DNA from: a virus
Virus record (IMG/VR): IMGVR_UViG_3300045988_047309
Span: 1-64,000 of that record
Strand: one strand, 5' to 3'
Length of the DNA stretch: 64,000 nt
Shown: piece by piece, positions 1,852 to 59,113 of the stretch
Position numbering within the stretch: the stretch's first letter is position 1
Layout: every line of letters starts with the position of its first letter
The notes under the pieces: model-generated
What the model was told of the DNA's origin: nothing
The model's database searches: none
Seen by the model: the letters and a program-made list of their open reading frames with translations, nothing else
Translations under genes and position numbers: made by a program

Positions 1852-1938
1852 TTTTTTAACTATTTGACTGCAAAGTTAGCTATGTCTTGACACTTAGAAA
1901 CCTTATCCATTAACTTTGTGAAATTGCAGACACCTTAA

Positions 1939-1981: not shown

Positions 1982-2011
1982 TATCATTATTAATAATTTA
2001 TAATTTCATAT

Positions 2012-2653: not shown

Positions 2654-2656
2654 CCT

Positions 2657-3793
2657 ATGAAAGCATCAGACATGTTACAACAAAATAACGGCTTGAAGAC
2701 TACACAGAGTGTACTCAACAAGCAGCAGAGTGGGGTGGATGTGGCTCAAAAGGTGGCACAGACTCAGGCTCCAGTATTCACACAGCAGCAACTTGATGCG
2801 GCTGGCAAGAAGATTGACCAGATAAACGCTGCCACTCCCACCGATGGGGCTATGAAGGCAGCTAAGGCTAAGACTATCGCCACACAACAGGCCATCGCCA
2901 ATGGGGTGGACGTGAATCAGGGTGTCCCAAGCGATGAGGAAGATAAACCATCTGTCCCTATTGTCAAGAAGGAGGAGCCGAAACATCAGGCTAAGCAGTT
3001 ATCTTATGCGGATATGTATAAGATGCTGAATCCTGAGCAAGAGGAGACGGCAGAACAGAAGGAGAGAAGGGAGAAGAAGGAACGCACAAAGGCTCGTATC
3101 GCTGCAATCGGTGACGGTCTGCGTGCGCTCAGTAATATCTACTTCGCTACTAAGGGTGCCAAGGTGGTACACAATCCTGAGTCGGATATGACTAAGGTGG
3201 TGAATAAGCGCAAGGAGTACATGGATGCTCAGAGAGAAAGAAATCAGGCGGCATGGCTGGCTGGTTATCAAAGGGCGATGGCTCTTGATGAGGAAGCCCG
3301 AAAGAACGACCTGACTCTTGCGGAGCAAATCAGGTATCACGATATGATGAATGAAAACAATAAGACAAAGGCTGACCAAGGACAGCAGAGAATTGATATT
3401 AACAAAATGCGTATTACCAATCAGCAGGAATACAATCAGGCAAGGCTTGAGCTGGATAGACTTAGGATGGAAGATAAGATTACTCAAAGCGAGAAGGAAC
3501 TTGCTATCAAATACCTGAATGCACGAGCTAAACAAATCGCTCCAAACAGGTCTGGAGGTGGTCGTGGCAGTTCTTCTAAAGAAGACTGGGACGCTGAATA
3601 TCTCAAACTGAATGGAAAGTATCCTTCTGAGGTAGCAAATGCTAATCAAACCGTAGCAAAGGGAGGTATCAAACCAAATACTGCTGCTGGACGAAAGCAA
3701 GTTGTGAAGATAGTCAGAAAGAAGATTGCTCATAAGGGTGGCGGTACTTCTTCTAAAAGAAGTGCTAAAAGTAAATTTTCAATTCATCATTAA
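2657..3793 (+). CDS. Gln/Lys-rich low-complexity protein (378 aa), probable internal virion protein
   Basis: Composition and position directly upstream of the giant ORF. Ends KSKFSIHH. Confidence 0.55.
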   Translation: MKASDMLQQNNGLKTTQSVLNKQQSGVDVAQKVAQTQAPVFTQQQLDAAGKKIDQINAATPTDGAMKAAKAKTIATQQAIANGVDVNQGVPSDEEDKPSVPIVKKEEPKHQAKQLSYADMYKMLNPEQEETAEQKERREKKERTKARIAAIGDGLRALSNIYFATKGAKVVHNPESDMTKVVNKRKEYMDAQRERNQAAWLAGYQRAMALDEEARKNDLTLAEQIRYHDMMNENNKTKADQGQQRIDINKMRITNQQEYNQARLELDRLRMEDKITQSEKELAIKYLNARAKQIAPNRSGGGRGSSSKEDWDAEYLKLNGKYPSEVANANQTVAKGGIKPNTAAGRKQVVKIVRKKIAHKGGGTSSKRSAKSKFSIHH

Positions 3794-3804
3794 AAAGAAA
3801 CAAT

Positions 3805-6800
3805 ATGCCAATAAATAGTAAGGTTAAGAGACTGTATGATGCCTTGAAGGCTGATGGTGGTGATGTTGGTACACCAGAAGAATTTAACTCTTGGTTCTTT
3901 AAGCCTGGCAAGGAAGGTTACAAAAACAGAAAATCCGTATATGATACCTTCAAGGCTGATGGGGCTGATGTAGGGAAAAACTATGAGGAGTTCGGTAAAT
4001 GGCTTGGCCTTCATGCTGTTTATCCTACCGTAAACAAGTATCACCAGCAGATGCTGAACTCTGTTGACCCAAACAAGAGCAGGGCATCTGAACTTACTCA
4101 TAGAGCGGTTAGTCAGGCAAAAAGAGGAATGAATAATGTCCGTAAGCCTGTCCGTGGTGCTGTAGTCAACAAGCAAGGTAAAAAGGTGAGTGAATTTGAT
4201 ATTACTCCTGCCAAGACCGTAGAAGACCTTGATAGAGAGTATGCTCAGGAGACAACAAAGAACTGGGAGAATGAACTGCATGATCAGATGGCTGATGCCG
4301 ACAAGGATGCAGCAAAGATTAGCGATATGTTCAAGTCCTTCATCGGTTCTATGGATGAGGTCGGTAGCGTGTGGGGTAATATGACAAGAGGTGGCGGTAT
4401 TGCAGGTACTCCTCATAGTGTTACTACCAACAATGGTCTCATGAAGAATACTGAAGCTCGCCAACTTCTTATTGCTGGTGACTACAATCGTAAGAGAAGA
4501 GAACTCTTACAGTTGGAGCAGGATTCAAGAAATGGTGCTTTCTTTGACAATCATTCTTTTTTTAGAGGAATGTATGATGCTGCCAAAGACACTGGTTTCC
4601 TGACAGGTGGGGCTTTTAACCTTATCAGTGGTTTCACCATGCTTAAAACCAAGCAGGACTTGGATAATGGTGTCCATACGAAAGCTGGAGATATGCTGAT
4701 GCAGCAAGCGGTAAAGAATAGTAATGCACAGAGTCAGTATGGTGACAATCAGGGATGGATGTACACTGGTGGTGTTATCACTACCAATATGGCTCCTTTT
4801 ATAGTGCAGATTGCCAGTGCAGGATTCTCCAAGGGTTTGAGTACTTCAATCGGCAAGGTTGTGCAGGGCGCAGCTTCCAAGGTGGCACTGGGTACAATGA
4901 AAAAGGCGGCAGGATTTGCAAGTGCAGATTTGGCTAAGAACATCGGTAAGGTAACTGGTCTTACTACCAAGGCTTTCGGCAAGGCTATCCAGTATGGAAT
5001 CGTGGGTGCAGCCCAAGCTAATACAGTTGGTCTTGGAAATGTTGCTAACGATGTGATTAACCGCTATACGGGTCAGGTCTATCAGGATGAGCAGGGTAAC
5101 TACAAGTTCGGCACATTTGATAGTGATGGTAAACTTGTGCATGAAGGCGGTGAAGACTTCCTTACTGCCTTCGTAAAGGGTGATGCGGCTCAGACCATTG
5201 AGTTTGCTACTGAGTTGGCTGGCGGTGGCATTGATGCTGTGGGTACTGCCCTGAAGAACTTCGTTACCAAAGGTGGCAAGAAAATTATCAACAAGTACAA
5301 CATGGAGAATGTCTCCAAGGTGATAGACTTCTTGCTTAATAATAAAGTGTCAAAGAATGTAAGATATTTGAAGGCTGGTGCTGACAGAACACTTGGTAAG
5401 GTTGAAGTGAATAGTATTGTCGGTGAGTCTCTGGAGGAAGAGTTGGGTATCATCGCCAATACGGTCTTTACTGGTGATAACAAAATCTCAGACTTGTGGG
5501 ATGAAAAGCAGCAGTCACAGATATGGGGCGGTATGCTCTTGTCTATCGGATTGATGAAGGGTGTTGTTGCTCCTTTCCATGCTTATAATGCCAAGCAGTA
5601 TTATTCCTATAAGCATAAGCTAAACAAGGCTGATGTGAACTTGTCTCAGTTGCTCGGTAAAGAGAAGTGGGAAGAACTCCGTAATCAGATTGATGCTACA
5701 ACAAACGAGGATATGCCTGAAATGGTAAACAGAATCAATCGTGATGTTGCTCTTGGTAAGAACAGACAGCCAGTGCGTGAGTATATTCAGAACTTGCTCA
5801 TCATGCGTGGTTATGACATTGGTAATATGCTTGCAGCAAAGAAGGCAGTTGAAGATAAGGGTGAAGGTGTCTCCGTGAAGAATATGGAGAAGAATCAGGC
5901 ATATCAGCAGGGTCGTGATGCTTACGGCTATGATACACATGAGATTCAGTTAGACCAAGAAGACAAACAAAAGTCTCTTGCTCAACTTCTCGGTATATCA
6001 GAGCAGCAGTTGGCATCCATGAGTGATGAGGAGCTTGAATCATTCTCTGGTCGTGATGATAATATTGATAGGGCTATTTATGACTACCAGTTGTCGAGTG
6101 CTCGCTATGAAGGTGTTGTTGATAACGCAAGAGACCAGATAGACTTGGAGGTTCAGAGAGCAGCACAGGCGGTTGATATGTACACAGACAAGTCTCGTAA
6201 TACTATCCGAAACGCTACCATCAAAGCATCAGGCGGCTTGGAAGACTATGGCGTGTATATTATCAGCGGTAATATTGCTACTCATGATGATGGCTCCATT
6301 GATGTAAGCAATAGCGATGATATGATTCTGTATTATGACCCAACTACCAATACTGTTGAGCACGCTGATGCCATGATGTTTGCTGAACTGGGTAGTGAGG
6401 AGAATGCTGATGAAGTGAGAAGTCAGGCTATGGCTGATGCCAAGGAGAAGGCTATCAAAGAAACTACTGGTATCATTGATGGTGTTGTTGAGGTAGGTAC
6501 TCAGTTCAAGACCGTTGGTGCAGATGGAACAGAACATACTTATGAAGTACTCGCTGATAATGGTGATGGTACTGCCATGATTACTATTGATGGCAACATT
6601 CCAACAGAACTTGTCAAGGGTGAGAATGTAAATATTCCAGTCTCGTTTGAAGAGTTGCAGAAGATGAAGGATGAGTCTGACCAGCAGAGATTGCAAGCGG
6701 CAAAGGCTCAGCGTGAACAGGTGGAGAAGGAGCGTGCTGAGCAACAGATGCAAGCACAGACTACACAAGCAGAGAATCCAACTCAGGAAGATAATATCCA

Positions 6801-9800
6801 GTCAACACCTATCGAAGATAACATAGACTACTCTGATATAATCAGAGAGGATGGTAAGGTTCAGATGGTAGATGTTTCTGATAAGGATGGAAATAATCTG
6901 TTCCCTGATGCTAAAGATGTTTTCTATATCCAAGGAAACAAGATGAGAACCAAGTTTGTTTATATTGATGCAAATGGAGAGTTGAAGACTCAGAGTTTCC
7001 CTACTGGATTGGTTAAGATAAAGACAAGGGGTGAAGTATCTGTTGATGATTACAAGAAGTATCGCAATACGTTACTCTCTGCTGAATCTTCTGCCATACC
7101 TGAATCCTCAATGATAGAGGATAATAGTGGCACAATAGAGGCTAATAGAGGTGGAATAGAGGTTGAAGATAACACTCAGCCTTTATCGGAAGCTGATGCT
7201 GACAATGTAATCGCCCAGATGGAATCAAGTGCAGAGACCGCTCCTGATTTGGAACTTACACCAGACAACTGGACAGCAGAGTTTGGTGAAGATGGAATCT
7301 TGTCTACTCCTATAGGTGATGTGAAGATGGGAGAGAATCAGGTGGCTAAGTTGTTTGAGAAAGGTCGTTCCAAGGAGTTTGGTATGATTAAGCCAACGCT
7401 TACGAATCCTGATGTGATAATCGAGGTTCCTTCTCATTCTGCTGATGGCAATGAGGAGCGTTCATCATCTTATCTGTTTATCAAGACTTTCTTGGGTAAG
7501 AATGGCAAAAAGGTGTACTATTTCAAGTCTGTAACCATCAAGAAGGATGGTCTTGAAATCAGCATTAGCAGTAACTATGACAGAGCAAAGAGAGTAAAGG
7601 AGGCATTAATGAAAGGGAAGTTGCTATATCGTAAGAACGATGGCGCACAGACCGAGCAGAACCAGCCTTCTACTTCTGTGGCAACTTCCCAAGAGGATGC
7701 TGCTGGCTCTTCTGAAAGCAAATTTACAAACATTTCTGCAAACGACAATGAAAATAATGAAAGTTTAACATTTGAAGATGGTACTCCTATCCCAGTTGAT
7801 GAGAGTGGTGAGACTGACCTTAGTCAGACTGATGCTGCTCATGCTGCTGAGTGGTATGACAATAACCTCGGTGAGGATGCAGATGATTGGCTGGATGGAG
7901 AAATCAAGAAGGCTAAGAAAGTATTGGAGCAAGCAAAGAATAAGAAGTTGGCTGGCACTAAACCTTCTGAGTTGGTTGCAAGCAAGAAGGAGAAGGAAGC
8001 TGCAATAGCTGATGCCCAAGCACATTATGACTCTGCAATCTCTATCCGTGATTCGTTGAAGGAAAGAAGAATTGCCAAGGAAGAGAATACTGCTGAGGGC
8101 AGAAAGAGTCTCATTGAGAAGGCAAGAAGAAAGTTCACTCGATTGAAGAACAGCGAAGAATGGAGTGAGCGGACTGGTGACTTGTGGAATGAGACGGTTG
8201 GCAAGTTGCTACATCGTCTGTATGATGCTACAGGAATTGATGTTTTCGATGATACTCCTAATACTGTCTATGAGTATGTTGCTGAAAATGTCGGTCCGTA
8301 TAGCTTGAATTATGAAGGCAACGATAATTCGAAGGGAGTACAGCAGGAGACAGGTTTGTCTCGTTCTGACTTCGCCAAGTTAGGATGGCTCGCTGCCGAA
8401 GGCAAGGGTATGACTATTGATGCCAAAGTACACAGACTTTGGGAGAATAGGCCATCCAACTTGGAGAGTGCGGACACGCAGGAGATAAGAAACGCCTTGA
8501 TCAGTCTTATTACAAGCGGTCAGACCGCATTCCAGGCGAGAGATTATATCCTGAATCAGCGTATCGAACTTGCAGAGAGTGCGCTGGAGGAGCAACTGAG
8601 ACAGGAAGAAGATGCGGCCGAAGCTCAGAAGGCTAAGGAGGAGGAAGAAAAGAAAAAGGCTGAGCTGGAGAAGAAAGCAGAGGAGGAGAAGACGAATGAG
8701 AACAGAAATACTCCTGAACTTTCCCATGAACAACAAAAAGCTATGGAAGAGGGCGAGAAATTAGGTTTTCCTGCTGTTGACAAGGAAGGCGAACCTATCA
8801 ATCAGAATGTCATAGAACTTGCTAACTGGGCAAAGGAACAAGGCTTAGAGATAGACCCTACATCTAAGTCGAATAGCTACGCTGATTTGTACGTGATGTG
8901 TAAGGAAGGCTTCGGTGTCAGTACGTTGGTTCCTGATGTTGGCGAGGATATTAATCAGGTATTCTATTTCCCTGACAACGTACAAGGTGAGCAATTAGCT
9001 AAACTGCAAGAGGAATTTAATGTAGGTCGTGACCTTAAACACTCTGCTGATATGAATAGCGAACTAACAGAAGGTGTTATGTTCTATGATGGAGATACAG
9101 CGAGAGAGTTCAGAGATTTTGTTAATGAGAAGGTAAATGAGGAGAGCAAGACTATTGAAGTTCCTGAGGATGCAACGGATGATGCTCCTTTGGGTGAGCA
9201 ACTTGATGAATCCGACCTTCCTTTCTCTGCTAAGGATAACGGCCAACAACAGACAACATCTGAGCGTGCTGCTGACGTAGAGAAGAACAAGGTGGATGAT
9301 ATGAAGGTCGTTGACAACATCGTGGGGCAGAAGACTCGCAAGGCTTTCGATAGGTTAGCTAAGATGATGGGTGCCAACATTCAGTGGCAGTACTCAGACA
9401 AGTTGGGTAACGGCTGGATTCAGGAGACTACGGATGCCGATGGCAACGTGCATCGTACTATCTTCATCACTCTTGACTCTTCTATCACGGAAGGTGCTCA
9501 GTTTATCTTCGGCCACGAAATGACTCACCAAATCAAGAACCTGAACCCTGCTGCATACGATGAGTTGACTCAGCTTGTTCTTGATACCTATGGCTCTGAT
9601 GCCTTCGACAAGGCGGTAGATGAGACCATGCAGAGATATTCTGATGCAGGATTCTCTGGACGTGATAGAGATTACTATGCTGAGGAGGTTGTTGCTGATG
9701 CGGTAGGCGAAATGATTCGTGACCTCAACTTGGCTCACACTCTCGCTATGAAGATGTCTCATCCTCTGCTCGCTGCTATACATGAGATATTGCAGAAGAT

Positions 9801-12800
9801 TAAGTTGGCGTTCTATGGCACTGAGTATAGCGATGCGACCAAGAATATCATCCGCTCCATCGAACAAGCCTATGTGAAGACTGCAAAGGGTCTGGTGGAG
9901 AACTCTGATACTGGCGAAGATGTTTCATTCTCTCTCCGTCAAAAGCCTGAGCCTAAGAAGAAGGGTGTTGGCTACAAGGTGTTCGTATTGAAGGATGGCA
10001 AACTCTATCCGCCAATGGTAGCGAACCCTGATGGTGCTGCTACTCCAGTAGGTGTATGGCTTGATGCTGATGCTGCTCCTATTGCAGGAGAAAGCAAGAC
10101 TGGCAGACCTCAAGTTAAGCAGGGCGGTAAGGGAACACAAGGCGGTAGCGGTAAGTTAGCCTATAGACCAGGATGGCATCTTGGTGTGGTTCCTTACGCT
10201 ATCCAGTTTAACCGCAAGGATGCTGAGGGAAACAAGACTCTCTTCCCTAAGAACTTTGTCTTCGCTGAGGTGGAGTATGCTGCTGATGTAGATTATCAGG
10301 ATGAAGCTCGCCAAGAGGGTATCAATCCTTCGGGCAAGTATCAGCATTCTCTCGCTGGCTTGAAACATCTGCCAACTGATGGATATTATATGTATCGTAC
10401 CAACCCGAACCCTGAGACTGATCCTTGGGTGATTACTGGTGCGATGAAGGTGAACCGTATCTTGACCAGAGCAGAGCAAGCAGACTTGGTAATCAAGGCT
10501 GGACGTGAACCTCAGCAGATTCAGGAGGGTGATATTGTTACTGATGATGTTGTGAACAGCATCAATCAGGAGATAGCTGATGCTCCTAAGTTCTCGTTGA
10601 AGGTATATCATGGCAGCGGTGCTGACTTCACAGAGTTTGACTTCGACCACATGGGCGAGGGTGCTGGCTCCCAAGTATTCGGTTGGGGCGGCTATGTTAC
10701 TTCATCAAAGAAGATTGGTAAGAGCTATGCGAATCTTGTAGATGCTAACGCTCCTTATCAAGATGTAGAATATGTTGGTAATAACGCTCATGAATATACT
10801 GATATAGTTGCTGGCTTGTTTAATGGTGGTCAGAGAGATTATGATGATGTTAAGGAGTTCTTGCAGAATGGCTATAATTCCGACAAGGATAATGCTCGGA
10901 AGAAACAGATGTTGGAATGGTTTGAAAGTACAAAACCATCTGATTGGAAGTCTGTTAATGATGGAAAACGTAACCTCTATGAAGTGGATATTCCTGATGA
11001 CAATGGCAGCAACTATCTGGATTGGGAAAATCCTTTGAATGAGGAACAGATAAATGCTATTCGTGATGCTTTGGCTAAGAATGGTGTTGATGTTTCATCT
11101 TGGGAAAATAGAGGTTTCAAACTGGATTTGCCTTTTAAAGATGTATATGCAGCAGTTCTTCCAATGATGATGCGTTGTGAGCCAAAGGAAGTAAGCAAGT
11201 TCCTCTCTTCTCTTGGTTTTACTGGCATTAAATATCCTGCTGGTACTATCCAAGGTGGCGCAGAGGAAGGCGATACCAACTATGTTATTTTCAAGCCTGA
11301 GGATATGAAAATTACTCAGCATACCAAGTTCTCTCTCCGTTTGAAGGCTGCTATTGAGGAAACAGAAACCAATCCATCTGACGCACAGAAGGAGAGTGGC
11401 AACTACAAGAAGGGACACATCAAGTTCGGTGGCTACGATTACACAATAGAAAATCCAAAGGGTTCAACTCGTTCAGGCAAGGATGCCGATGGCAAAGAGT
11501 GGAAAATAACCATGCACGATACCTATGGCTATATCCGTGGTAAGTTCGGTAAGGATGGCGACCATCTGGATATGTTCATCAACGACAAGGCAGACCTTGA
11601 TAATTGGAATGGTGATGTGTTTGTCGTTGACCAAGTGAATCCTGATGGCTCATTTGACGAACACAAGGTGATGTACGGATATGACTCTATGGATGATGCA
11701 GAAAAGGCTTATCTCGCCAACTATAGCGATGGTTGGCAGGGTCTTGGAAATATTACTGGAGCAAGTAAGGATGAGTTCGATAAGTGGCTTGATACGAGCA
11801 ATCGTAAGCTAAAGCCGTTTGCTGACTATGCAAAGGTGAAGTTTTCTCATGCGCAGTCTGTTTCTAAACCTCGTTACTCGTTGAAGGACATAAAGCCTAT
11901 TGGTGTTGGTGCTTTTGGAAATATATACAATCAGTTCCGTGGCAAATCTAAAGCAGCTATAGAGTTCTTGAAGAAACTTGGTAGCGGTGAGGCAACTGCT
12001 GCTTTACATCATCATACTATTGGTGATATATCTTTGGTATGGGGAGATAAAAAGGCTGGTCTTGATAAGATTCTAAGAAAGCATCCTGAGGTTGTTGATA
12101 ATTTGCAGTCTATCATAGATAGTATGGAGGTTGTTCAAGAAAGCGATAATCGTGTCAAGTTGGAATCGCCTACACACTTTGCTGTAGTAAGTAAGGAGTA
12201 TAAGGGCGAACCAAGAGAACAATGGTTATTGACTGCATACGAAAAAAGAGAATCCTTGGAAAATGACAAGAGTATGGACACTGCCACTTCTTCGTTGGGA
12301 GGTGACACAGCTCTCTCCCAATCCAAGGGTTCTGCTGCAAAGATAGACAATTCTTCTGAAACAGCCAAGGAAAATGGCGAAAAGTTTTCATTGAAGGATG
12401 AGAAGACTCTTGCAGGAGTTCATAACATTACAGAGGAGAAGCTGAGAAAGGCTATCAAGCAGGGTGGTCTTGCCAATCCGTCTGTGGCAGTTATTGATTC
12501 CAGTAAGCAGAACCATGAGGACTATGGTGACATTTCTCTGATATTGCCTTCTGAAAAGGTGGCCAAGAGAACTGGAAAGAACGCTGGCACTTGGCAGGGC
12601 GATGCTTGGACGCCTACCTATCCGCAAGTAGAGAGACAGATGAGCAATAATGGGGCTGCAAAAGCATCTAAGGATGTTAGTTCTGTCCCTGGCGATATGT
12701 ATAACGAGGTAAGAAGAGGACTTGACCGATGGCTGGATGGTGGAGAAGGAAACTCTGCTATGGCTTATATTTTCCTTCACGAAAAGGGTGTGGCACCTGA

Positions 12801-15800
12801 ACCGAAGAAGATTCAGCATAAGTTTAGTGATGACGTATATAACGAGTTGAAGTCTATTACTGCTGGAGACTTCAATATCTATGGTATCGGAAAGGCTGAT
12901 GCCCAGAAAGTATTGGGTATGTACATTGATGCCAAGTTTGATGGCGATAAGGATTTGTATGAGGAGAAGACCAAGGCTTGGTTGGAAAGAAACAAGTCTA
13001 TCGTTGATGCTGGTAATAAGGGTGGAATGAGATATACCATTGCCAAAGAGAATGTTGAACTATACGATGAATATGGTTTCAACTATAAGAGTGTGCAGAC
13101 TTTCGTCCGTGATGTAGAGTATGACCATCGCAAGACAGGTGTTGACATGAATGCCACGCTTAATGATGTTGAAGACTACATTAAGACCAATAACCTGACG
13201 GATGAATTCAATACTTGGCTGGAAGGTAAAGAAAAGGAGTATGGTATTAAGGAGGTAATCTTTGATGGCTTCACTCCAAGCGGCAATCGTAGATATGTAC
13301 CAAACACCTTGGAGAATGTTTCCAAGATAATGAAGAAACAAGGCAGAAATGGTGCAACTGGAATATCGGTATCTTTCCAAAACTTCGCTGCAAGTTTGAT
13401 GCCTTCTTATGGAACATTGAAGGATATTCGCTCCAAGAAAGGCTTGTTGACTTCTGATCATGAGGATTTAGATAAGTTCAACGAAAAGTGGTCTAAAGTA
13501 TTCTTTGAACTTGGCATGAAGTGCCAGCCTGATGCAACTGGAACTTTTGATGATTATGGTTTGGCAAGGCTCTCTGAGGCGGCAAAGACAAGTGATCCAC
13601 AAGCCTATTTGAAGAAGGAGTACAATGTGGACTTCTCAGATGGGGATACGAAACGTTTGAAGGAAATGGTTAAGGCTATCAAGGAAGAGTCCCCAGCCAT
13701 GTACTTTGAAACAAAGTTTGAACGTCCTGTTGGCTTTAACGAGTTCTCTTCTGCTGTGGTCCCAACAACGGCAAGTGACGAGGTTAAGCAGGCTTTGCAG
13801 AATGCTGGTGTTCAGATTTACGAGTACGATAAGGAGAAGGAAGGAGACCGCAGTCGTGCCTTCAATGAAGCTATCAACGGTAGTGACAATATTCGTTTCT
13901 CTCTGAAATCAATGATGGAGAAACCTGAGGGATGGAAACAAGCCAACAAGAAGGCTATACATATTGCAGAAGCTATAGAGCGTGACCCTAAGTTCTCCTT
14001 GAAGAACCTTGATGGCACTCTCATTAAGGCAGGAACCTATTTCAGTGGTGGTGGTCTTGTTGAGGAAGGCTTGAAGGGTATCATCGACCCAGTGGTGGCA
14101 GTGGAGTATGACGAGAAGATAAGCGGTGTATATCGCAATAACTTCGGGCAGCACATCGTTACTGCTGATGTTCGTGATGTTGACCCTAAGGAGTTGGTGA
14201 AGCAGATAGATGGCGAGGTGGAGTACTTCCATGCCAGCCCAGTCTGCAAGAACTACTCTCAGGCGAAGAGTAACCATGCAGAGGTGGAACTTGACAAGGA
14301 GACTGCTGCAAGTACTGCCGAGTTTATCAATGCTATTAAGCCAAAGGTGGTGACCATTGAAAACGTGAAGGGATATAAGGATTCGGAAGCGATGAAGATT
14401 ATCACGGATGCCCTGGATGCCAACGGTTATACTTGGGATGCAGATGTGTATAATGCTGCTGACTATGGCGGCTACACCAACCGAGAGAGGTTGATTGTCC
14501 GTGCGGTTCGTGATGGTAAACTCCCTGAAAAGCCAAAGAAGATGGCACACAAGAGCGGATGGTATGAAGCTGTGGCTGATATTATCCCGACCCTGACCGA
14601 GAAGAAGAATGGTGTGGCTCCTTGGATGGATATTCGCTTGAAGGCTGATGGTATTGACTGGAGAAACATTGACAAGCCATTGTATGTGATGGGTAGTGCT
14701 TATGCTGATGGCAAGATTCCTCATGCTTTTGCTGACGAACTCCTGCCAACACTCAGAACCAAGAGTGGTGATGTGATTGTTATGCCTGATGGCAAGGTAT
14801 ATCGTGCTATGGGCAGAGTGCTCGCAAGAGTATCAGGAGTGAGCGATGATTACAAGATGCCATTCTCCGAGAACCTGAGCCATACCATCATCGGTAATGG
14901 AATACCTACCCAGTTGACGGAACATGTGATTGCTCCTCTTTTGCAGAACACCTTGCGCCCAACTACTCCTGATGATGGTAATACCAAGTTCTCTCTCCGT
15001 GGCTCCACACCTTACGACAAGCAGATGGAAGAGTGGATGGAGAAGAACCATTTAGAAAAGGGTGCTGTTCCTATGGAAAAACCTGTCATGAAGGAAGGTG
15101 AGAACATTTTTGATTATGCCAACAGAATGGTAGAGTGGACTCGCAATCAGAACTTGTGGAAGACCGCTCCTAAGCAGACTGGATTCCAAGATGCACTCGA
15201 CAAGTGGAAGGCTGACAATGGTCTTTCTCCTGATGCTTATCCACCTGTCCGTCCTCATCGTGAAAACTATTCAACAGAAATCGGTTATACAGAAGACTTG
15301 GAGGAGTACAACAAGAAGAAAGAACTCTGGAAGTCTGCTCCAAAGCCAAAGGACTTTGATTTGTCCGTTGACTTGGAGGATATGAACAAGCAGCTTCGTA
15401 ATATCAGAAGAGCGGTTCTGAATCAGAAGAACTATGACCAGAGAACGGTTAAGGCGGTATCTGACCTTGTAAGAAAGATGCTCAACATTGGATGGGGTGA
15501 CGGATTGAGCAGGGGTAAGGTAGGCAACCTTCTCTCTGCTGCCAAGAATGCCACTGGAGCCAATGACGTGAAGAAGTATCTCGACAAGGCTATGGGAATC
15601 CTTGCTGAAAACTATCTCAACCGTCTCTCTACTGCCTACGACAACCTTATCAATACCAGGGGTGCAAGGGCAGACCAGAGCGGTGTGATTAAGATGGGTT
15701 CTCTTGATGCCAAGGGTCAGGCTTTCATGAGCGAGTATAAGAAGGCTATCAATATGGATGATAGCTCTCTGAATACCTATATAGCAAACATTGAGGAAGA

Positions 15801-18800
15801 TTCTGCCAAGAATGAAGATAATGTGGAAATGAATGACTACAGACTGGCTGGTATTCAAGCTGCCATCATGTATAAGCAGCAGATTGGCGGCAATGATGCC
15901 GATATTTCCGAGTTGAAGAGACAGATTGGTGAGTTGAAGAATAAGAAGGATGCTACCAAGGAAGACAAGGATTTGTTGAAGTCCTTGGAAAAGAAACTCT
16001 TTGAGAATAAGTTTGACCGCATCACCATGTACGAGAATCTTCTGAATAATATTCAGAGAATGGTGAAGGAGAGTAAGGGTAGGGCAAAGGAGTTCCGAGA
16101 GGAGATTACTGAGCACAAGAATGAAATCCTGCATCGTGCCAACTTGGATTTGGAAGGTGTGGATTCTGCCTATTATGATACCACAACTGCCAAGAAGAAG
16201 TTTGTGAATAATCCTATTCTCCGTTTCGTCATGTCTTCAACATACACATTTGAGCAGTTCTTGAAGTTCTTTGGCAGACATCATGCAAATGGTGAAGGCT
16301 ATCTCTACAACTACTTTATGTCTGAATGGCAGGATGCAGCAGACGAACAGCAGTTGTATAATGAAATGAACCGCAATGCCCTTGATGAGAAGACCAAGGA
16401 GTTGTTCGGCAAGAAGAACTTCACAAAACTGGTAGGTATTGATGGCAAGGGTATGAAGGAAATGGACGTTGAGGTTACTGACTACTCCAACAAGGAGACT
16501 GGTAAGCGAACCATCCATCTGAAACAAGGTCAGATGCTCTATATCTATCTGGTCAATAAGGAGACTGATGGAGAAATGAAACTCCGTGCTATGGGTATCA
16601 CAGAGGAAAAAGTGGCTGAAATCGAGGAAAATCTTGACCCAAGAGTGAAGGCTATTGGTGAGTGGTTGCAGGATGAATATCTTCCTGAATGTCAGAGAAG
16701 ATACCAAGCTACCCATACCAAGTACTTCGGTGCTCCTATGAAGGAGGTGGAGAACTATTTCCCTCTTGCCATCAATAACCGGGCAAGAAATATCAGGGAA
16801 GATTTGAATCAAGATACTGATGCAATAAGTCGATTGGCTGGTACTTCTACTGGTGCTATTATTACACGAAGGGTGAACGTAATTCCTCTTGATATAGAGA
16901 ATGCCGATGCTTTTGCGGTTGCCTTCAACCATCTGGATGAAATGGAAGAGTGGTCTGCTTACTTGCCATTTATACAAGATGTCAACACCTTACTCTCTTC
17001 TACTCATTTCAGAAATCAGGTAATGAACATGTCTTCTGCTGCCTACGGAAGTGGTAAAACCTTATGGGAGGAGTTTAAGAAAGTGGCTCAGATTGCTGCT
17101 GGAACATACAAGCCAAAGGTTGACAATGGTATGATGGATAGCAAGATTGCTGCTGTTGTCGGTGGTATTGCTACCGCAAAGATTTCAGGTCGTTTGTGGA
17201 CTGCCTTTAAACAAACTCAGTCTGCAACCACGTTCCTTACTGAATGTGACCCAGCTAGATTCTTGTGGTATGGTGTTAACCCATACGGCTCATGGCATTG
17301 GGCTTATGATAACCTTCCATTGTTCCGTAAGCGTGTAGAGCAGTTGACTGCTGGTGATGTAAAGGTAAGACAATTCTTGGATGAGTTAGAGAAATACCAT
17401 GACTGGACAAAGACTATTGCAAAGGTTGGTATGTCTCCTAATATACTTGTTGACTCTGTAACTTGTGCGGTTGGTGCTCGTTCCGTTTATGAGACTGAAT
17501 TGAATAAACTGACCAAGTTGGGCTATTCAAAAGATAAGGCAGAGGAGAAGGCTATACAAAAGGCATCGCTTTCATACAATAAGACTCAGCAATCGTCTGA
17601 GGGTGCTTTCTTATCTCCAATGCAGGTTGATAGAACATACGTATCTGCTGCTTTGTCGCTCTATAAAAATGCTAACTATGCTTATGGTAGAAAGAAGATT
17701 GAAGCAATTAGAGGTATAGCCAAGACGTATAGATTCTGGGGTGAACATAAAAATGCCATGATTGGTTCAATGACAAGACAGATTATGGATGAGGATGGTC
17801 TTGATGAAAATGTTGCTAATGCTATCGCAAAAAGAGCATATACAAGAACATTTTGGTATAATATAGGTACGCTCCTGAATTACATGACTATCGTTCCGAT
17901 TTCTTGGGCTGCATACAAGGTGCTTCTATATCTCCTGAATGGTGATGATGATGACAAGAAAAAGAAGATGATTGAGGAAGCGTGCTTAAAAGGATTTGCT
18001 ACCACAACATTTGATGATTATGTGATTCCGTTTGCTTCAAATGTCCTGAATGCAGGATTGAACATAGAAGATGGCAAGATAGGTTTTGATACTGATGTTT
18101 TCAAGTATCAGAATTTATATATCAACCCAGCTACATCTGACTTGTCGAATATCTATTCTATGATAGGTAATCAGAAATGGTGGTCTGCTGGCAACAAATT
18201 CGGTATGCTTGGCATTCAGATGCTCGTAGGATTCAATCCTGAGACCATAGGAGCACTCTATCAGGCTTACGATGAGTTTGATAAGGATAGCGGTAATATG
18301 CCATTGGAGATTAAACTTGCCGTATTGAAGTCTATAAGTGCCCCTGAGGAGAGTATAAGAGGTCTCTATATGGATGAACTCGGTCTTGATAATGAGGATA
18401 GAACCAAGGTTCCATTGTCGGTACTGGAGCAGAGATATGCCGAGAGACAGATTAATCGTGACAACCTTCTGTCTCAGATTGCCATGCCGAAGGAAACTTT
18501 TGATGGCTATGTTGAAAAGTACAAAAAGTCTTTCGAGAAGAAGATTCAGGATAAGATGGATAAGATGGATGCTTACGACCAGAGGAAGTTTGATGCTATC
18601 TTTGATACTACTACAGACCCTGCATTGAAGGGTATGATGGAAAAGAAACGTACCAAGGATGCCAATGCTGCTGCTGACGAGCAGATAGCAAAGGAAGGTC
18701 TGAATCAAGAGAAGAAGGGTAAGGAGCCTAGCGAAGAAGCTTACGATGCAGTAAAGATGTCTATTGATGTGGCGGAAGATAATGCTATCAGTACCTACAA

Positions 18801-19065
18801 TAAGGTGCTCAACAAGCGATACGCTGCCCTGAATGATGAGTACAACAATCAGACAGATGCAATGAAGTACATCTTTATGAGTAAGCATCCAAACTTCAAG
18901 GCATACAAGGATTTGGAATCTGAATATACCACGTATGGCAAGAAGATGAAGGAGTTGAAGGAAAAACTGGTTTCTGCTGACGGATATGATGCCAAGCAGA
19001 CAATCCTGAAACAGATACGTGCCGAAAGAGAGAAGTTCAGTGAACTGCAATCCAAGGTAAGATAA
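3805..19065 (+). CDS. giant polyvalent protein (5,086 aa)
   Basis: Single uninterrupted ORF. Contains an HEMTH zincin motif, a DGDHLD pyrophosphatase-like motif and C5-MTase motifs I/IV/VI/VIII/X. A recurrent KFSL[KR] linker separates the modules. The C-terminal ~1,350 aa carry a hydrophobic helix. Confidence 0.9.
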   Translation: MPINSKVKRLYDALKADGGDVGTPEEFNSWFFKPGKEGYKNRKSVYDTFKADGADVGKNYEEFGKWLGLHAVYPTVNKYHQQMLNSVDPNKSRASELTHRAVSQAKRGMNNVRKPVRGAVVNKQGKKVSEFDITPAKTVEDLDREYAQETTKNWENELHDQMADADKDAAKISDMFKSFIGSMDEVGSVWGNMTRGGGIAGTPHSVTTNNGLMKNTEARQLLIAGDYNRKRRELLQLEQDSRNGAFFDNHSFFRGMYDAAKDTGFLTGGAFNLISGFTMLKTKQDLDNGVHTKAGDMLMQQAVKNSNAQSQYGDNQGWMYTGGVITTNMAPFIVQIASAGFSKGLSTSIGKVVQGAASKVALGTMKKAAGFASADLAKNIGKVTGLTTKAFGKAIQYGIVGAAQANTVGLGNVANDVINRYTGQVYQDEQGNYKFGTFDSDGKLVHEGGEDFLTAFVKGDAAQTIEFATELAGGGIDAVGTALKNFVTKGGKKIINKYNMENVSKVIDFLLNNKVSKNVRYLKAGADRTLGKVEVNSIVGESLEEELGIIANTVFTGDNKISDLWDEKQQSQIWGGMLLSIGLMKGVVAPFHAYNAKQYYSYKHKLNKADVNLSQLLGKEKWEELRNQIDATTNEDMPEMVNRINRDVALGKNRQPVREYIQNLLIMRGYDIGNMLAAKKAVEDKGEGVSVKNMEKNQAYQQGRDAYGYDTHEIQLDQEDKQKSLAQLLGISEQQLASMSDEELESFSGRDDNIDRAIYDYQLSSARYEGVVDNARDQIDLEVQRAAQAVDMYTDKSRNTIRNATIKASGGLEDYGVYIISGNIATHDDGSIDVSNSDDMILYYDPTTNTVEHADAMMFAELGSEENADEVRSQAMADAKEKAIKETTGIIDGVVEVGTQFKTVGADGTEHTYEVLADNGDGTAMITIDGNIPTELVKGENVNIPVSFEELQKMKDESDQQRLQAAKAQREQVEKERAEQQMQAQTTQAENPTQEDNIQSTPIEDNIDYSDIIREDGKVQMVDVSDKDGNNLFPDAKDVFYIQGNKMRTKFVYIDANGELKTQSFPTGLVKIKTRGEVSVDDYKKYRNTLLSAESSAIPESSMIEDNSGTIEANRGGIEVEDNTQPLSEADADNVIAQMESSAETAPDLELTPDNWTAEFGEDGILSTPIGDVKMGENQVAKLFEKGRSKEFGMIKPTLTNPDVIIEVPSHSADGNEERSSSYLFIKTFLGKNGKKVYYFKSVTIKKDGLEISISSNYDRAKRVKEALMKGKLLYRKNDGAQTEQNQPSTSVATSQEDAAGSSESKFTNISANDNENNESLTFEDGTPIPVDESGETDLSQTDAAHAAEWYDNNLGEDADDWLDGEIKKAKKVLEQAKNKKLAGTKPSELVASKKEKEAAIADAQAHYDSAISIRDSLKERRIAKEENTAEGRKSLIEKARRKFTRLKNSEEWSERTGDLWNETVGKLLHRLYDATGIDVFDDTPNTVYEYVAENVGPYSLNYEGNDNSKGVQQETGLSRSDFAKLGWLAAEGKGMTIDAKVHRLWENRPSNLESADTQEIRNALISLITSGQTAFQARDYILNQRIELAESALEEQLRQEEDAAEAQKAKEEEEKKKAELEKKAEEEKTNENRNTPELSHEQQKAMEEGEKLGFPAVDKEGEPINQNVIELANWAKEQGLEIDPTSKSNSYADLYVMCKEGFGVSTLVPDVGEDINQVFYFPDNVQGEQLAKLQEEFNVGRDLKHSADMNSELTEGVMFYDGDTAREFRDFVNEKVNEESKTIEVPEDATDDAPLGEQLDESDLPFSAKDNGQQQTTSERAADVEKNKVDDMKVVDNIVGQKTRKAFDRLAKMMGANIQWQYSDKLGNGWIQETTDADGNVHRTIFITLDSSITEGAQFIFGHEMTHQIKNLNPAAYDELTQLVLDTYGSDAFDKAVDETMQRYSDAGFSGRDRDYYAEEVVADAVGEMIRDLNLAHTLAMKMSHPLLAAIHEILQKIKLAFYGTEYSDATKNIIRSIEQAYVKTAKGLVENSDTGEDVSFSLRQKPEPKKKGVGYKVFVLKDGKLYPPMVANPDGAATPVGVWLDADAAPIAGESKTGRPQVKQGGKGTQGGSGKLAYRPGWHLGVVPYAIQFNRKDAEGNKTLFPKNFVFAEVEYAADVDYQDEARQEGINPSGKYQHSLAGLKHLPTDGYYMYRTNPNPETDPWVITGAMKVNRILTRAEQADLVIKAGREPQQIQEGDIVTDDVVNSINQEIADAPKFSLKVYHGSGADFTEFDFDHMGEGAGSQVFGWGGYVTSSKKIGKSYANLVDANAPYQDVEYVGNNAHEYTDIVAGLFNGGQRDYDDVKEFLQNGYNSDKDNARKKQMLEWFESTKPSDWKSVNDGKRNLYEVDIPDDNGSNYLDWENPLNEEQINAIRDALAKNGVDVSSWENRGFKLDLPFKDVYAAVLPMMMRCEPKEVSKFLSSLGFTGIKYPAGTIQGGAEEGDTNYVIFKPEDMKITQHTKFSLRLKAAIEETETNPSDAQKESGNYKKGHIKFGGYDYTIENPKGSTRSGKDADGKEWKITMHDTYGYIRGKFGKDGDHLDMFINDKADLDNWNGDVFVVDQVNPDGSFDEHKVMYGYDSMDDAEKAYLANYSDGWQGLGNITGASKDEFDKWLDTSNRKLKPFADYAKVKFSHAQSVSKPRYSLKDIKPIGVGAFGNIYNQFRGKSKAAIEFLKKLGSGEATAALHHHTIGDISLVWGDKKAGLDKILRKHPEVVDNLQSIIDSMEVVQESDNRVKLESPTHFAVVSKEYKGEPREQWLLTAYEKRESLENDKSMDTATSSLGGDTALSQSKGSAAKIDNSSETAKENGEKFSLKDEKTLAGVHNITEEKLRKAIKQGGLANPSVAVIDSSKQNHEDYGDISLILPSEKVAKRTGKNAGTWQGDAWTPTYPQVERQMSNNGAAKASKDVSSVPGDMYNEVRRGLDRWLDGGEGNSAMAYIFLHEKGVAPEPKKIQHKFSDDVYNELKSITAGDFNIYGIGKADAQKVLGMYIDAKFDGDKDLYEEKTKAWLERNKSIVDAGNKGGMRYTIAKENVELYDEYGFNYKSVQTFVRDVEYDHRKTGVDMNATLNDVEDYIKTNNLTDEFNTWLEGKEKEYGIKEVIFDGFTPSGNRRYVPNTLENVSKIMKKQGRNGATGISVSFQNFAASLMPSYGTLKDIRSKKGLLTSDHEDLDKFNEKWSKVFFELGMKCQPDATGTFDDYGLARLSEAAKTSDPQAYLKKEYNVDFSDGDTKRLKEMVKAIKEESPAMYFETKFERPVGFNEFSSAVVPTTASDEVKQALQNAGVQIYEYDKEKEGDRSRAFNEAINGSDNIRFSLKSMMEKPEGWKQANKKAIHIAEAIERDPKFSLKNLDGTLIKAGTYFSGGGLVEEGLKGIIDPVVAVEYDEKISGVYRNNFGQHIVTADVRDVDPKELVKQIDGEVEYFHASPVCKNYSQAKSNHAEVELDKETAASTAEFINAIKPKVVTIENVKGYKDSEAMKIITDALDANGYTWDADVYNAADYGGYTNRERLIVRAVRDGKLPEKPKKMAHKSGWYEAVADIIPTLTEKKNGVAPWMDIRLKADGIDWRNIDKPLYVMGSAYADGKIPHAFADELLPTLRTKSGDVIVMPDGKVYRAMGRVLARVSGVSDDYKMPFSENLSHTIIGNGIPTQLTEHVIAPLLQNTLRPTTPDDGNTKFSLRGSTPYDKQMEEWMEKNHLEKGAVPMEKPVMKEGENIFDYANRMVEWTRNQNLWKTAPKQTGFQDALDKWKADNGLSPDAYPPVRPHRENYSTEIGYTEDLEEYNKKKELWKSAPKPKDFDLSVDLEDMNKQLRNIRRAVLNQKNYDQRTVKAVSDLVRKMLNIGWGDGLSRGKVGNLLSAAKNATGANDVKKYLDKAMGILAENYLNRLSTAYDNLINTRGARADQSGVIKMGSLDAKGQAFMSEYKKAINMDDSSLNTYIANIEEDSAKNEDNVEMNDYRLAGIQAAIMYKQQIGGNDADISELKRQIGELKNKKDATKEDKDLLKSLEKKLFENKFDRITMYENLLNNIQRMVKESKGRAKEFREEITEHKNEILHRANLDLEGVDSAYYDTTTAKKKFVNNPILRFVMSSTYTFEQFLKFFGRHHANGEGYLYNYFMSEWQDAADEQQLYNEMNRNALDEKTKELFGKKNFTKLVGIDGKGMKEMDVEVTDYSNKETGKRTIHLKQGQMLYIYLVNKETDGEMKLRAMGITEEKVAEIEENLDPRVKAIGEWLQDEYLPECQRRYQATHTKYFGAPMKEVENYFPLAINNRARNIREDLNQDTDAISRLAGTSTGAIITRRVNVIPLDIENADAFAVAFNHLDEMEEWSAYLPFIQDVNTLLSSTHFRNQVMNMSSAAYGSGKTLWEEFKKVAQIAAGTYKPKVDNGMMDSKIAAVVGGIATAKISGRLWTAFKQTQSATTFLTECDPARFLWYGVNPYGSWHWAYDNLPLFRKRVEQLTAGDVKVRQFLDELEKYHDWTKTIAKVGMSPNILVDSVTCAVGARSVYETELNKLTKLGYSKDKAEEKAIQKASLSYNKTQQSSEGAFLSPMQVDRTYVSAALSLYKNANYAYGRKKIEAIRGIAKTYRFWGEHKNAMIGSMTRQIMDEDGLDENVANAIAKRAYTRTFWYNIGTLLNYMTIVPISWAAYKVLLYLLNGDDDDKKKKMIEEACLKGFATTTFDDYVIPFASNVLNAGLNIEDGKIGFDTDVFKYQNLYINPATSDLSNIYSMIGNQKWWSAGNKFGMLGIQMLVGFNPETIGALYQAYDEFDKDSGNMPLEIKLAVLKSISAPEESIRGLYMDELGLDNEDRTKVPLSVLEQRYAERQINRDNLLSQIAMPKETFDGYVEKYKKSFEKKIQDKMDKMDAYDQRKFDAIFDTTTDPALKGMMEKKRTKDANAAADEQIAKEGLNQEKKGKEPSEEAYDAVKMSIDVAEDNAISTYNKVLNKRYAALNDEYNNQTDAMKYIFMSKHPNFKAYKDLESEYTTYGKKMKELKEKLVSADGYDAKQTILKQIRAEREKFSELQSKVR
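9235..9927 (+). other. zincin-like metallopeptidase module of the giant protein
   Basis: FIFGHEMTHQ (HEMTH at 9514-9528) with downstream EEVVADAVGE. Bounded by PFSAK and SFSLR linkers. Confidence 0.7.
11341..11874 (+). other. inorganic-pyrophosphatase-like module of the giant protein
   Basis: YTIENPKGS...YGYIRGKFGKDGDHLDMFI...DEHKVMYGY. DGDHLD (11554-11571) fits the PPase D-x-D-x-x-D signature apart from His at position 4. Confidence 0.6.
11887..12384 (+). other. small module, tentatively a Barnase/EndoU/RelE-like nuclease domain as found in polyvalent proteins
   Basis: GDISLVWGDKKAGLDKILRKHPEV...FAVVSKEY...WLLTAYEK pattern. This is recollection of the family only and needs a profile search. 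Confidence 0.3.
14005..14988 (+). other. DNA (cytosine-5) methyltransferase module of the giant protein
   Basis: YFSGGG (motif I, 14038-14055), HASPVCKNYS (motif IV, Cys codon at 14245), TIENVKG (VI), TNRERLIV (VIII), IGNGIP (X). Confidence 0.8.
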
Positions 19066-57590: not shown

Positions 57591-58508
57591 TTAATTAAGT
57601 TTGATTCTGATTGACGGTTTGGTTTCTACCTCCTTGAGATAATGCTCGTAGTGGTCTGGCTCTGTATCCTTGAAAAGTTTAGTGTCGAAAGTTTTCTTGG
57701 TGGTAGCTTCCACGTAAGAGTATGTACCGATATTGGTCTTGATAGACTTCTGCTTATTCCCTTCCATCAAGCACATCAGCTGCTCCTTGATAGAATCCTG
57801 ACGAAGTTTCAGTGCATCTATTCGTGCCGTGAGAAGTCTGTACTCCTGCTCCAAGGCTGAGAACTGCTCGGGTACTTCCACCTTGTAATGATAGTCTGCA
57901 TCGTCTGTGAGATAAGCGTAGATTAAGTTCGTTATTGTCTCATCAGATACTCTTGGCAGTGGCTGGAACCTGCTCTTGCCATCCTTGAACCACATGCAGA
58001 CAATCTCCTTCACCTTTAGGTTGGGATTCATCTGCTCGAACCATTTGGCATAGATGGATAACTGGAGAGAAACGTTGTTATAGTGCAGGGTGGAGGTGGT
58101 CTTGTAGTCAACAAGGTAGATATTTCCTTCGTTGTCAGCGAACACACCATCTATGGCCGATGCAAAATACTTGTTATCTGTGACAAGATACTCGCTATCC
58201 ACATGATGCAGTCCGTAAGCATGCAGCATATCGCTGAAGTCACGTATCTCCTGTGTCGGATTCGGATATGCGCTTATGTCCGAATCAAAGATGGTACAGA
58301 ATAGCTCAAAGGAGTTGTGAATCATTCCACCACGTTCGGCAGCCTTAGCCAACACACTGTCTGGTATGTCCTTATATGTATCAGGAAAGGCAAACTTGAT
58401 GAGCGTTCCAGTGATACCTGATAGCTGTTTCTTTCCAAGATGGTAGGTGTGGTTGATCTCATCGAACACCACCTTGCTTTTCTTTAGCTTTATTTCCTTT
58501 GTTTTCAT
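57591..58508 (-). CDS. PD-(D/E)xK (RecB/Cas4-like) exonuclease
   Basis: INHTYH, ERGGMIHNSFE, AIDGV, YLVDYKTT and QLSIYA motifs in canonical order. Confidence 0.7.
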   Translation of the reverse strand: MKTKEIKLKKSKVVFDEINHTYHLGKKQLSGITGTLIKFAFPDTYKDIPDSVLAKAAERGGMIHNSFELFCTIFDSDISAYPNPTQEIRDFSDMLHAYGLHHVDSEYLVTDNKYFASAIDGVFADNEGNIYLVDYKTTSTLHYNNVSLQLSIYAKWFEQMNPNLKVKEIVCMWFKDGKSRFQPLPRVSDETITNLIYAYLTDDADYHYKVEVPEQFSALEQEYRLLTARIDALKLRQDSIKEQLMCLMEGNKQKSIKTNIGTYSYVEATTKKTFDTKLFKDTEPDHYEHYLKEVETKPSIRIKLN

Positions 58509-59113
58509 ATTCCTAATTCCTTTCTCTTAGCAGATAGCGTCTGCATGAATTGTGCGTTGCTCATCAACGGCTTGTAGGTCTGCATTACCCATACAAGGTT
58601 GTCCTTGTTCACGCAGCGTGATACCATCTGTATCGCCTCGTTGATGTCGTTAGGGTGATACTGAGGGTCTGAGGTTGCTGGTACGTTATTGCTGCTTTTT
58701 ACTTTTTGCTGGCTTTGCTGGTCTTTCTGGTTTTCAATATTAGTTGTATCGGAATCTGCATTGTCATCAATAGCAAAAAGACCATTCAGTGCATACTTTC
58801 GTGCATAAGAAGATGCAGCCCCAGTAATCTGGCTCCCATCCATTCCCTTCTTGGTTTCTTCCTCTCTTGCATAACCTGTCGTTATTTCTATTTCGCCTTT
58901 GCTGTTTTTGAGAGTAGCGGTTGCCTTTACATATATGCGATTGCCAACCATTTCTATATCGTCTGTCATAACCAGTGTGCAACCAAGATTGGACATTATC
59001 GGCTTAACCGCTTCTAATATATCCTCAACCTTGCGGTACTTGTAGTTGCCAAAAGCATTGAATTGAGATTTCGGTGCTTTAAGCGTTGACTGAATTGTTA
59101 TAAGTTCTTTCAT
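58505..59113 (-). CDS. ERF-family single-strand annealing protein
   Basis: KAPKSQFNAFGNYKYRKVEDILEAVKP...GAASSYARKYALNGLFAIDDNADSD. Confidence 0.75.
   Translation of the reverse strand: MKELITIQSTLKAPKSQFNAFGNYKYRKVEDILEAVKPIMSNLGCTLVMTDDIEMVGNRIYVKATATLKNSKGEIEITTGYAREEETKKGMDGSQITGAASSYARKYALNGLFAIDDNADSDTTNIENQKDQQSQQKVKSSNNVPATSDPQYHPNDINEAIQMVSRCVNKDNLVWVMQTYKPLMSNAQFMQTLSAKRKELGI

Follow-up and report, generated by a model that had tools for sequence, protein, structure and literature searches.

Polyvalent proteins are single chains that carry 2-15 conflict-related effector domains, including those of the PolyVal, LPD and PBECR types (Iyer, Burroughs, Anand, de Souza and Aravind 2017, PMC5512222). 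A zincin-like metallopeptidase is frequent, though not obligatory, in these chains, and autoprocessing by it was proposed in 2017; in the parts of that article covered by our text searches, no site is named and no junction motif or cleavage site is described (PMC5512222). They are regarded as injected weapons with which phages and plasmids disarm host defences. Here, we analyse a giant gene of this kind in a 64,000-nucleotide stretch of viral DNA (positions 1 to 64,000 of IMG/VR record IMGVR_UViG_3300045988_047309, hereafter the window), the 5086-residue product of which contains an array of modules with a pentapeptide, typically KFSLK or KFSLR, at every module boundary.

This protein resembles the polyvalent proteins already described in that it is a giant multidomain phage protein with ART-PolyVal, InPase, PBECR1, PBECR2, PBECR5, LPD14 and DNA methylase matches and an HExxH module. 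It differs from them in having a defined pentapeptide at every junction, which is also the exact point of cassette exchange, and in that its zincin-like module goes unmatched in Pfam, even by the polyvalent-protein models that match elsewhere in the chain. A 2811-residue polyvalent protein was found packaged in the virion proteome of phi24B, and its ejection was proposed, with nothing reported on processing (bioRxiv 10.64898/2026.04.10.717836). Our literature searches found no prior description of a KFSLK, KFSLR or FSL motif or of cleavage sites in polyvalent proteins. The new element is a universal five-residue joint, which is a recombination point and probably also a processing site.

A short consensus at each boundary between unrelated units, with the protease encoded in the same genome or chain, is familiar from viral polyproteins (potyvirus NIa, picornavirus 3C) and from the consensus-site cleavage of phage head proteins (T4 gp21, phiKZ gp175). 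Gene order in those systems is fixed, whereas module order is hypervariable here and the motif doubles as a recombination joint. In the MARTX toxins of Vibrio, an inositol-hexakisphosphate-activated cysteine protease cuts after Leu in the linkers between domains. Going by overall architecture, we regard these toxins as the nearest functional analogue: they reach 5208 residues compared to 5086 here, their non-cassette terminal regions flank a central modular effector array, they embed a protease (in our case a candidate), and their effector repertoire varies by recombination, which in MARTX occurs between strains (PMC6315884, PMC5218395). MARTX effectors are freed by cutting between domains, whereas cleavage is inferred here, and the cysteine protease of MARTX contrasts with a candidate zincin and a fixed pentapeptide. 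The RTX repeats of the toxins also have no counterpart, as neither a CPD nor an RTX domain was found anywhere in the 5086-residue protein (Pfam, E <= 0.01), and MARTX is a secreted toxin acting on eukaryotic cells, as opposed to a phage protein acting on bacteria.

Junction sites in the window and its relatives

Two motif-free, lineage-specific regions, one N-terminal (amino acids [aa] 1-1805) and one C-terminal (aa 3728-5086), enclose the eight modules of the array (aa 1806-3727), which are interchangeable effector cassettes. In order, the array holds the HExxH zincin-like module, an unannotated module of 221 aa (module C), the ART-PolyVal, InPase, PBECR1 and PBECR5 modules, a 27-residue mini-module and a Dcm methyltransferase module, with lengths from site to site of 235, 221, 246, 182, 170, 504, 32 and 332 residues. 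The LPD14 match lies below the Pfam cut-off. Judged by this domain set and by the phage context described below, the protein is a virion-type polyvalent protein of a temperate Segatella (Prevotella) copri phage.

Searching the translated open reading frame (ORF) 3805-19065 with the regular expression [KRSP][FY]S[LA][KR] returned exactly the nine sites that the original prediction had listed (Table 1) and, in line with its judgement by eye, nothing further in all 5086 aa. By chance, far fewer sites are expected: 5000 shuffles of the protein gave a mean of 0.10 and a maximum of 2, and the strict form [KR]FSL[KR] occurs six times compared to 0.01 expected by shuffling. A six-frame scan of all 64 kb added six loose matches, all within stop-to-stop frames of at most 70 codons, and found no motif in any other real ORF of the window. 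The placement at module boundaries, also part of the prediction, holds throughout: each Pfam domain of the array lies wholly within one module, strictly between consecutive sites, and 9/9 boundaries carry the motif. We further confirmed that two junctions (sites 4 and 9) lie in an identical 20-nucleotide (nt) string, ATACCAAGTTCTCTCTCCGT, and found that another junction pair has CCTAAGTTCTC(G/C)TTGAAG in common.

Not all of these sites are equally well formed. Site 1, on the N-terminal edge of the zincin-like module, is a weak, degenerate member that reads PFEIE, PFKIE or PFLAR in diverged homologues. At the InPase/PBECR1 junction (11839-11886, aa 2679-2694), the window has KFSHAQSVSKPRYSLK and many relatives just one KFSLK; a relic half-site is followed here by an intact site, as if the junction had been duplicated or a cassette imprecisely deleted. 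Variants of this junction include YAKVKFSLKDI and VSEPRYSLKDI. Two further resemblances were discarded. The ORF upstream of the giant gene does end in KSKFSIHH, as had been pointed out, but its supposed link to the motif did not hold: the matching ORFs of 70 relatives end in ...GGKKKTGVKW and similar sequences, and because the tail is unconserved we attribute it to chance rather than to a vestigial junction. An extra N-terminal motif in L012 and L073, considered as a sign of gene fusion, was rejected as a loose RFSAR match.

The motif extends well beyond the window. Nearly all of the 120 best database homologues carry 4-11 sites with module-like spacing, and 230 distinct cores yield the consensus [KR]-F-S-L-[KR]. 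Its flanks are not conserved, except that residues -4 and -3 are hydrophobic in just 2% of non-redundant left flanks; the full boundary peptide reads [polar]-[polar]-x-[K/R]-[F/Y]-S-[L/I]-[K/R]. To avoid circularity, we used internal anchors of the individual window modules to find junctions in relatives. Six of the eight cassette families have an intact motif at 84-99% of the upstream junctions anchored in this way, namely those of module C ([FY]SLR-type, 210/212), ART (298/309), InPase (134/143), PBECR5 (131/139), the methyltransferase (151/158) and, at its weak left site, the zincin (135/161). The figures are lower for PBECR1 (47/99) and the mini-module (80/154), the non-motif copies of which are embedded in larger modules and have no motif directly upstream. 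The idea of conserved linkers at module boundaries is thus borne out by the Pfam boundaries, the anchored junctions, the consensus and the low-confidence tails that flank the structural model of the zincin. Beyond its last motif, every complete relative has ~1195-1473 aa of tail free of motifs; we found no natural gene split at motifs, each complete relative continuing into its C-terminal tail of ~1200 aa. Among giants with zero motifs, no other recurrent peptide stood out when 4- and 5-mers were compared in a reduced alphabet.

Cassette exchange at the pentapeptide

Recombination joints for module shuffling had been offered as a second possible role of the motif, with homologue alignment as the check, and here the support is direct and goes beyond what was proposed. 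Our mosaic comparison covered about 200 homologues, with 121 proteins cut at the motif into module families. This gave 39 module families in 86 module orders, and common modules have up to 13 different neighbours each. In 2340 site pairs with only the left flank in common, identity is high through residue +3 and falls to background from +4, while in 1643 pairs with only the right flank in common it starts at residue -1. At the nucleotide level, among 80 phage relatives, left-flank identity extends to nt +4 (TTC TC) and right-flank identity begins at nt 0, which places the homology switch between nt +4 and +5 of TTC TCN, inside the pentapeptide. The window and these 80 relatives, 81 phages with 94-97% identity across the first two modules, display 64 module orders and 90 junction types. 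As the breakpoints lie within the five codons and the module orders are many, the reading of the motif as a recombination joint is directly supported: the pentapeptide is the exact in-frame point of cassette exchange, with the crossover in TTC TCN immediately after TTC TC. A long N-terminal region without motifs invariably precedes the array, and a C-terminal tail without motifs follows it.

The 5086-residue protein is itself a chimera of two lineages. Its terminal regions (aa 1-1650 and aa 3733-5086) are 80-85% identical to proteins whose zincin is only ~40% identical, whereas its own zincin and module C are 94-97% identical to those of 80 phages with unrelated C-terminal regions (comparison set P0140, P0141, P0079 and L002-L081). 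Module C is the most constant cassette, present in 80/80 phage relatives and almost always second, and has no Pfam, NCBIfam or PHROG-type annotation. The mini-module, bracketed by two motifs, belongs to a family with 53 copies among the homologues, in which the methyltransferase module comes next in all but one protein; other phages have a 73-residue module in its place. If the sites are cut, the mini-module would come off as a short peptide.

Proposed processing, selection and rival explanations

Cleavage, presumably by the embedded zincin, is the most economical explanation for a peptide constraint at every junction behind a protease-like lead module. We propose that a site-specific protease, most likely the zincin-like module that heads the array, recognises and cuts the pentapeptide. 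Cutting would take place after packaging or ejection, at all junctions of the chain and first at the protease's own C-terminus, and would free the modules (ADP-ribosyltransferase-like, pyrophosphatase-like, RNase-like and methyltransferase) as individual proteins. Since each cassette arrives with a copy of the site, recombinants joined at the motif would stay in frame and processable, which would account for how freely the array shuffles. The Erf/RecE pair of the phage is a plausible agent of such short-homology exchange and, together with the 12-20 nt shared at many sites, could drive it. We give this complete explanation, in which the junction peptide is both the swap joint and a zincin-cut site, a probability of about 0.5; taken separately, cleavage of the peptide by some protease seems reasonably probable, and its assignment to the embedded zincin is more tentative.

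The HExxH module is the sole protease-like module that a Pfam scan left as a candidate in the 5086-residue protein. Its H115, E116, H119, E171 and E172 (HExxH and a downstream EE) are invariant in an alignment of 13 diverse sequences down to 41% identity (A1), and its AlphaFold (AF2) model, with a pLDDT of 66.6, has a three-stranded sheet followed by the HExxH helix, both flanking junction sites lying within tails of pLDDT<50. Structure matches in BFVD were to other viral polyvalent proteins and, weakly, to SprT-like proteins, and ten short distant homologues gave Pfam matches to neighbouring domains only. The invariant HExxH/EE residues and the weak fold matches point to a zincin, although they do not prove it, and we call the module zincin-like because it has no match in Pfam, NCBIfam or the PDB. 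A second model, of aa 2250-2875 with four junctions, had a mean pLDDT of 45.7 and left InPase unmodelled; we discarded it as uninformative on the linkers. In zincin variants of ~40% identity (P0023, P0079, P0097 and P0010), an extra KFSLR lies inside the module, 56 residues before its C-terminal site, at a position where the window reads LAMKMSHPLL.

Motif and zincin also tend to go together across relatives. In full-length relatives, the zincin stands immediately upstream of the first strong motif. Among giants (proteins of at least 2000 aa), three or more strict motifs are present in all 18 of the 18 with a close zincin (E <= 1e-21), the density there being 1.35 per 1000 aa compared to 0.013 expected, but in only 12 of the 76 with a distant zincin. 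Two relatives without this zincin have decayed junctions: at homologous positions, P0098 reads RFLR, KFAQG, RFHR and PFADR, and gp68 of Bacteroides phage BF1-TP2, which has no HExxH in 3633 residues, reads RFRE and RFRS. This gp68 (L092 8578-19479) is annotated as a hypothetical protein of a cultured, 68-kb B. fragilis phage, on which we found no literature; it has InPase and PBECR5 modules in common with the window and offers a possible natural negative control for experiments. In many relatives, the zincin has a weak left site or none, which suggests that the protease would stay on the N-terminal body and cut downstream from its own C-terminus.

Several findings weigh against this explanation. 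The zincin-like module has no Pfam, NCBIfam or PDB sequence match, and Foldseek against the PDB returned nothing. Of the 120 best homologues, about 45 are arrays truncated at the 5' end; their first residues, MSHPLL, lie inside the zincin, after the HExxH, and they keep 5-8 strict motifs in more than 20 module orders. The one that we traced (P0026, L001 9396-17860) lies on a Prevotella metagenome scaffold among chromosomal housekeeping genes, adjoins a Gp49/HTH (HigBA-like) pair, truly lacks the upstream half of the zincin and has neither an N- nor a C-terminal body. A cis-encoded active zincin is therefore unnecessary for the upkeep of the motif, at least in the short term. Several motifs also occur in some giants with only distant zincin relatives, and Iyer et al. 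point to polyvalent proteins with metallopeptidase domains (N4 vRNAP, ArdC) that are delivered uncleaved (PMC5512222). Finally, nucleotide identity between junctions goes beyond what the peptide needs, with runs of at least 20 nt in 82 pairs compared to 2 in a codon-resampled null; part of the conservation therefore reflects descent or gene conversion.

This excess bears on the possibility that the motif is a DNA-level recombination scar or microhomology without a protein role, its conserved residues being a by-product. Such a scar would account for the breakpoints inside the motif and for the exact 18-20-nt repeats at some window junction pairs in a phage that encodes Erf and RecE-like recombination proteins. 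Exact runs of at least 14 nt between unrelated junctions are eightfold over the codon-resampled null, and codon bias at the sites exceeds that of the whole gene (TTC 83% compared to 62%, Ser TCN 94% compared to 60%, and Arg almost always CGN where the gene prefers AGA); the shared runs and the narrow codon use fit repeated recombination through the motif. However, only about TTYTC is common to all sites, and codons change freely, at the third base or as a whole, within a conserved residue class: Ser is encoded by TCT, TCG, TCC, TCA or AGC, the aliphatic position by TTG, CTC, CTG, ATC or GCT with Leu, Ile and Val alternating, and the basic positions by AAG or CGT/CGC, with no base in common between AAG and CGT. 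Flanking positions -4 and -3 are, moreover, constrained to polar residues, and the zincin/module C and mini-module/methyltransferase junctions are essentially never and almost never shuffled, respectively, yet both retain perfect motifs. The codon evidence contradicts a pure DNA scar, which we hold improbable. Both levels leave their trace, and selection acts on the amino-acid sequence, not on the DNA. An RNA-level or frameshift signal was set aside without a dedicated test, given that the shared nucleotides amount only to about TTYTC and that codons vary. It is thus very likely, taking the three points jointly, that the peptide stands at every cassette boundary, is the exact joint of exchange and is held in place by amino-acid selection.

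A protein role for the peptide could be filled in other ways than by the zincin. The motif might be cut by a host or another phage protease, with the zincin acting as an effector on host targets, a role that Iyer et al. considered for such metallopeptidases (PMC5512222). Most of the data are compatible with this alternative, including the intact motifs of truncated chromosomal arrays without the HExxH half, those of giants with a distantly related zincin, and the weak site upstream of the zincin, which may remain on the N-terminal body. Nevertheless, a non-exhaustive scan recognised no protease, prohead or other, in the 30 ORFs of the window that it covered, the zincin is invariably first in the array, motif density follows zincin relatedness, and junctions have decayed in zincin-less relatives; we consider another protease unlikely. 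The pentapeptide could also be an uncleaved docking motif in flexible linkers that binds one common partner, the most concrete candidate being the sliding clamp, which is bound by APIM peptides. The APIM consensus is [KR]-[FYW]-[LIVAST]-[LIVA]-[KR], also given as [KR]-[FYW]-x-[LIVA]-[KR], and seven of the nine window sites fit it. The likeness extends to an identical peptide, since RFSLK is a tested APIM variant for which binding to the E. coli beta-clamp and toxicity on over-expression have been reported; RFSLK, KFSLK and KFSLR all match APIM peptides of that study, in which basic residues likewise flank an aromatic-x-aliphatic core (PMC7261172). Docking would also suit the polar linker context next to low-confidence tails, and the cassettes include one that targets DNA (the cytosine methyltransferase) as well as three predicted RNases of PBECR families. 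However, the motif stands at every junction whatever the neighbour, including pyrophosphatase-like and RNase-like modules and the 27-residue spacer, and is absent from the window's other DNA-acting proteins. Clamp binding by APIM is itself weak, with a KD below 50 uM only for cell-penetrating versions, and was reported for E. coli and staphylococci only (PMC7261172). An APIM occurs once per protein as a docking site, compared to 6-14 copies per protein here, strictly at module boundaries and with a match in sequence only. Docking leaves the exact placement between modules unexplained; because the motif lies strictly between all module types, a clamp tag is disfavoured as its primary role, and we give this explanation a low probability.

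A variant of the zincin-cleavage proposal would have the peptide act again after the cut, as a "universal adaptor" that leaves each effector with an N-terminal Phe or Leu or with an APIM-like clamp-binding tag. N-terminal Phe or Leu is a bacterial N-degron that is read by ClpS/ClpAP. If this were true, injected nucleases and ADP-ribosyltransferases with the degron would have lifetimes that are short, programmed and compatible with lysogeny, a clamp tag would deliver effectors to the host replisome, and any cassette would be plug-and-play for recombination, processing and fate; we regard such a double role as very unlikely.

Phage context and significance

The other genes of the window encode a large terminase, a portal, an endolysin, a tail-fibre-like protein, an Erf-like annealing protein, a RecE-like exonuclease and Ant. 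Eighty IMG/VR genomes of 60-68 kb carry the zincin and module C at 94-97% identity, and a 95% identical prophage copy lies in the complete chromosome of Segatella copri HDE04 (NZ_CP152346.1, about 1.476-1.498 Mb). From the phage genes, these relatives and the HDE04 prophage, we conclude that the window is essentially the whole genome of a temperate S. copri phage. Among GenBank phages, megablast found no match to the region and tblastn with the zincin and module C gave one weak match, to a Roseobacter phage, that collection thus holding no cultured close relative. Besides the Dcm module of the giant protein, the window has a stand-alone second DNA methyltransferase gene (54275-55018, minus strand). 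At 40240-41772 (plus strand), three consecutive ORFs match the same two PHROG families (phrog_35482 and phrog_19255), in which function is unassigned, and look like tandem paralogues.

Table 1. Features of the giant polyvalent-protein gene and of the recombination module in the window
Feature	Nucleotides	Strand	Residues (aa)	Remarks
Giant polyvalent-protein gene	3805..19065	+	1-5086	15,261-nt ORF; from ORF list, translation and Pfam
PBECR2			1160-1276	Pfam, above cut-off
Site 1, PFSAK	9220..9234	+	1806-1810	Phe codon 9223; N-terminal edge of zincin module; pLDDT<50 in model
Zincin-like module	9235..9924	+		HEMTH aa 1903-1907, EE aa 1960-1961; always first in array
Site 2, SFSLR	9925..9939	+	2041-2045	Phe codon 9928; zincin/module C junction
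Module C	9925-10587	+	2041-2261	221 residues, after zincin; site to site
Site 3, KFSLK	10588..10602	+	2262-2266	Phe codon 10591; directly before ART-PolyVal/DUF3990 module
ART-PolyVal/DUF3990			2265-2313	Pfam, above cut-off
Site 4, KFSLR	11326..11340	+	2508-2512	Phe codon 11329; before InPase module; within 20-nt repeat 11321-11340
InPase			2526-2662	Pfam, above cut-off
Relic half-site, KFSH	11839..11850	+	2679-2682	7 residues upstream of site 5
Site 5, RYSLK	11872..11886	+	2690-2694	Tyr codon 11875; before PBECR1 module
PBECR1			2734-2816	Pfam, above cut-off
Site 6, KFSLK	12382..12396	+	2860-2864	Phe codon 12385; before PBECR5-containing 504-aa module
PBECR5			2865-2957	Pfam, above cut-off
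Site 7, RFSLK	13894..13908	+	3364-3368	Phe codon 13897; before mini-module
Mini-module	13909-13989	+	3369-3395	27 residues, bracketed by two motifs
Site 8, KFSLK	13990..14004	+	3396-3400	Phe codon 13993; before C-5 cytosine DNA methyltransferase module
C-5 DNA methylase (DNA_methylase)			3413-3710	Pfam, above cut-off
Site 9, KFSLR	14986..15000	+	3728-3732	Phe codon 14989; last cassette/C-terminal region; within 20-nt repeat 14981-15000
Phage recombination module	57591..59113	-		RecE-like exonuclease 57591-58508 and Erf-like single-strand annealing protein 58505-59113; phrog_434, phrog_155

For the annotation of giant phage ORFs, the motif provides a cheap rule for splitting them, which already isolates uncharacterised modules such as module C. 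If cleavage is confirmed, the zincin would make with the pentapeptide a compact protease/site pair that might be useful as a tool. Whether polyvalent proteins are cut, and where, has been an open prediction since 2017, and a defined junction peptide makes it directly testable. For the phages themselves, the junction peptide explains how 81 genomes of one phage lineage, whose host is a dominant bacterium of the human gut, can present 64 effector line-ups with the reading frame unbroken.

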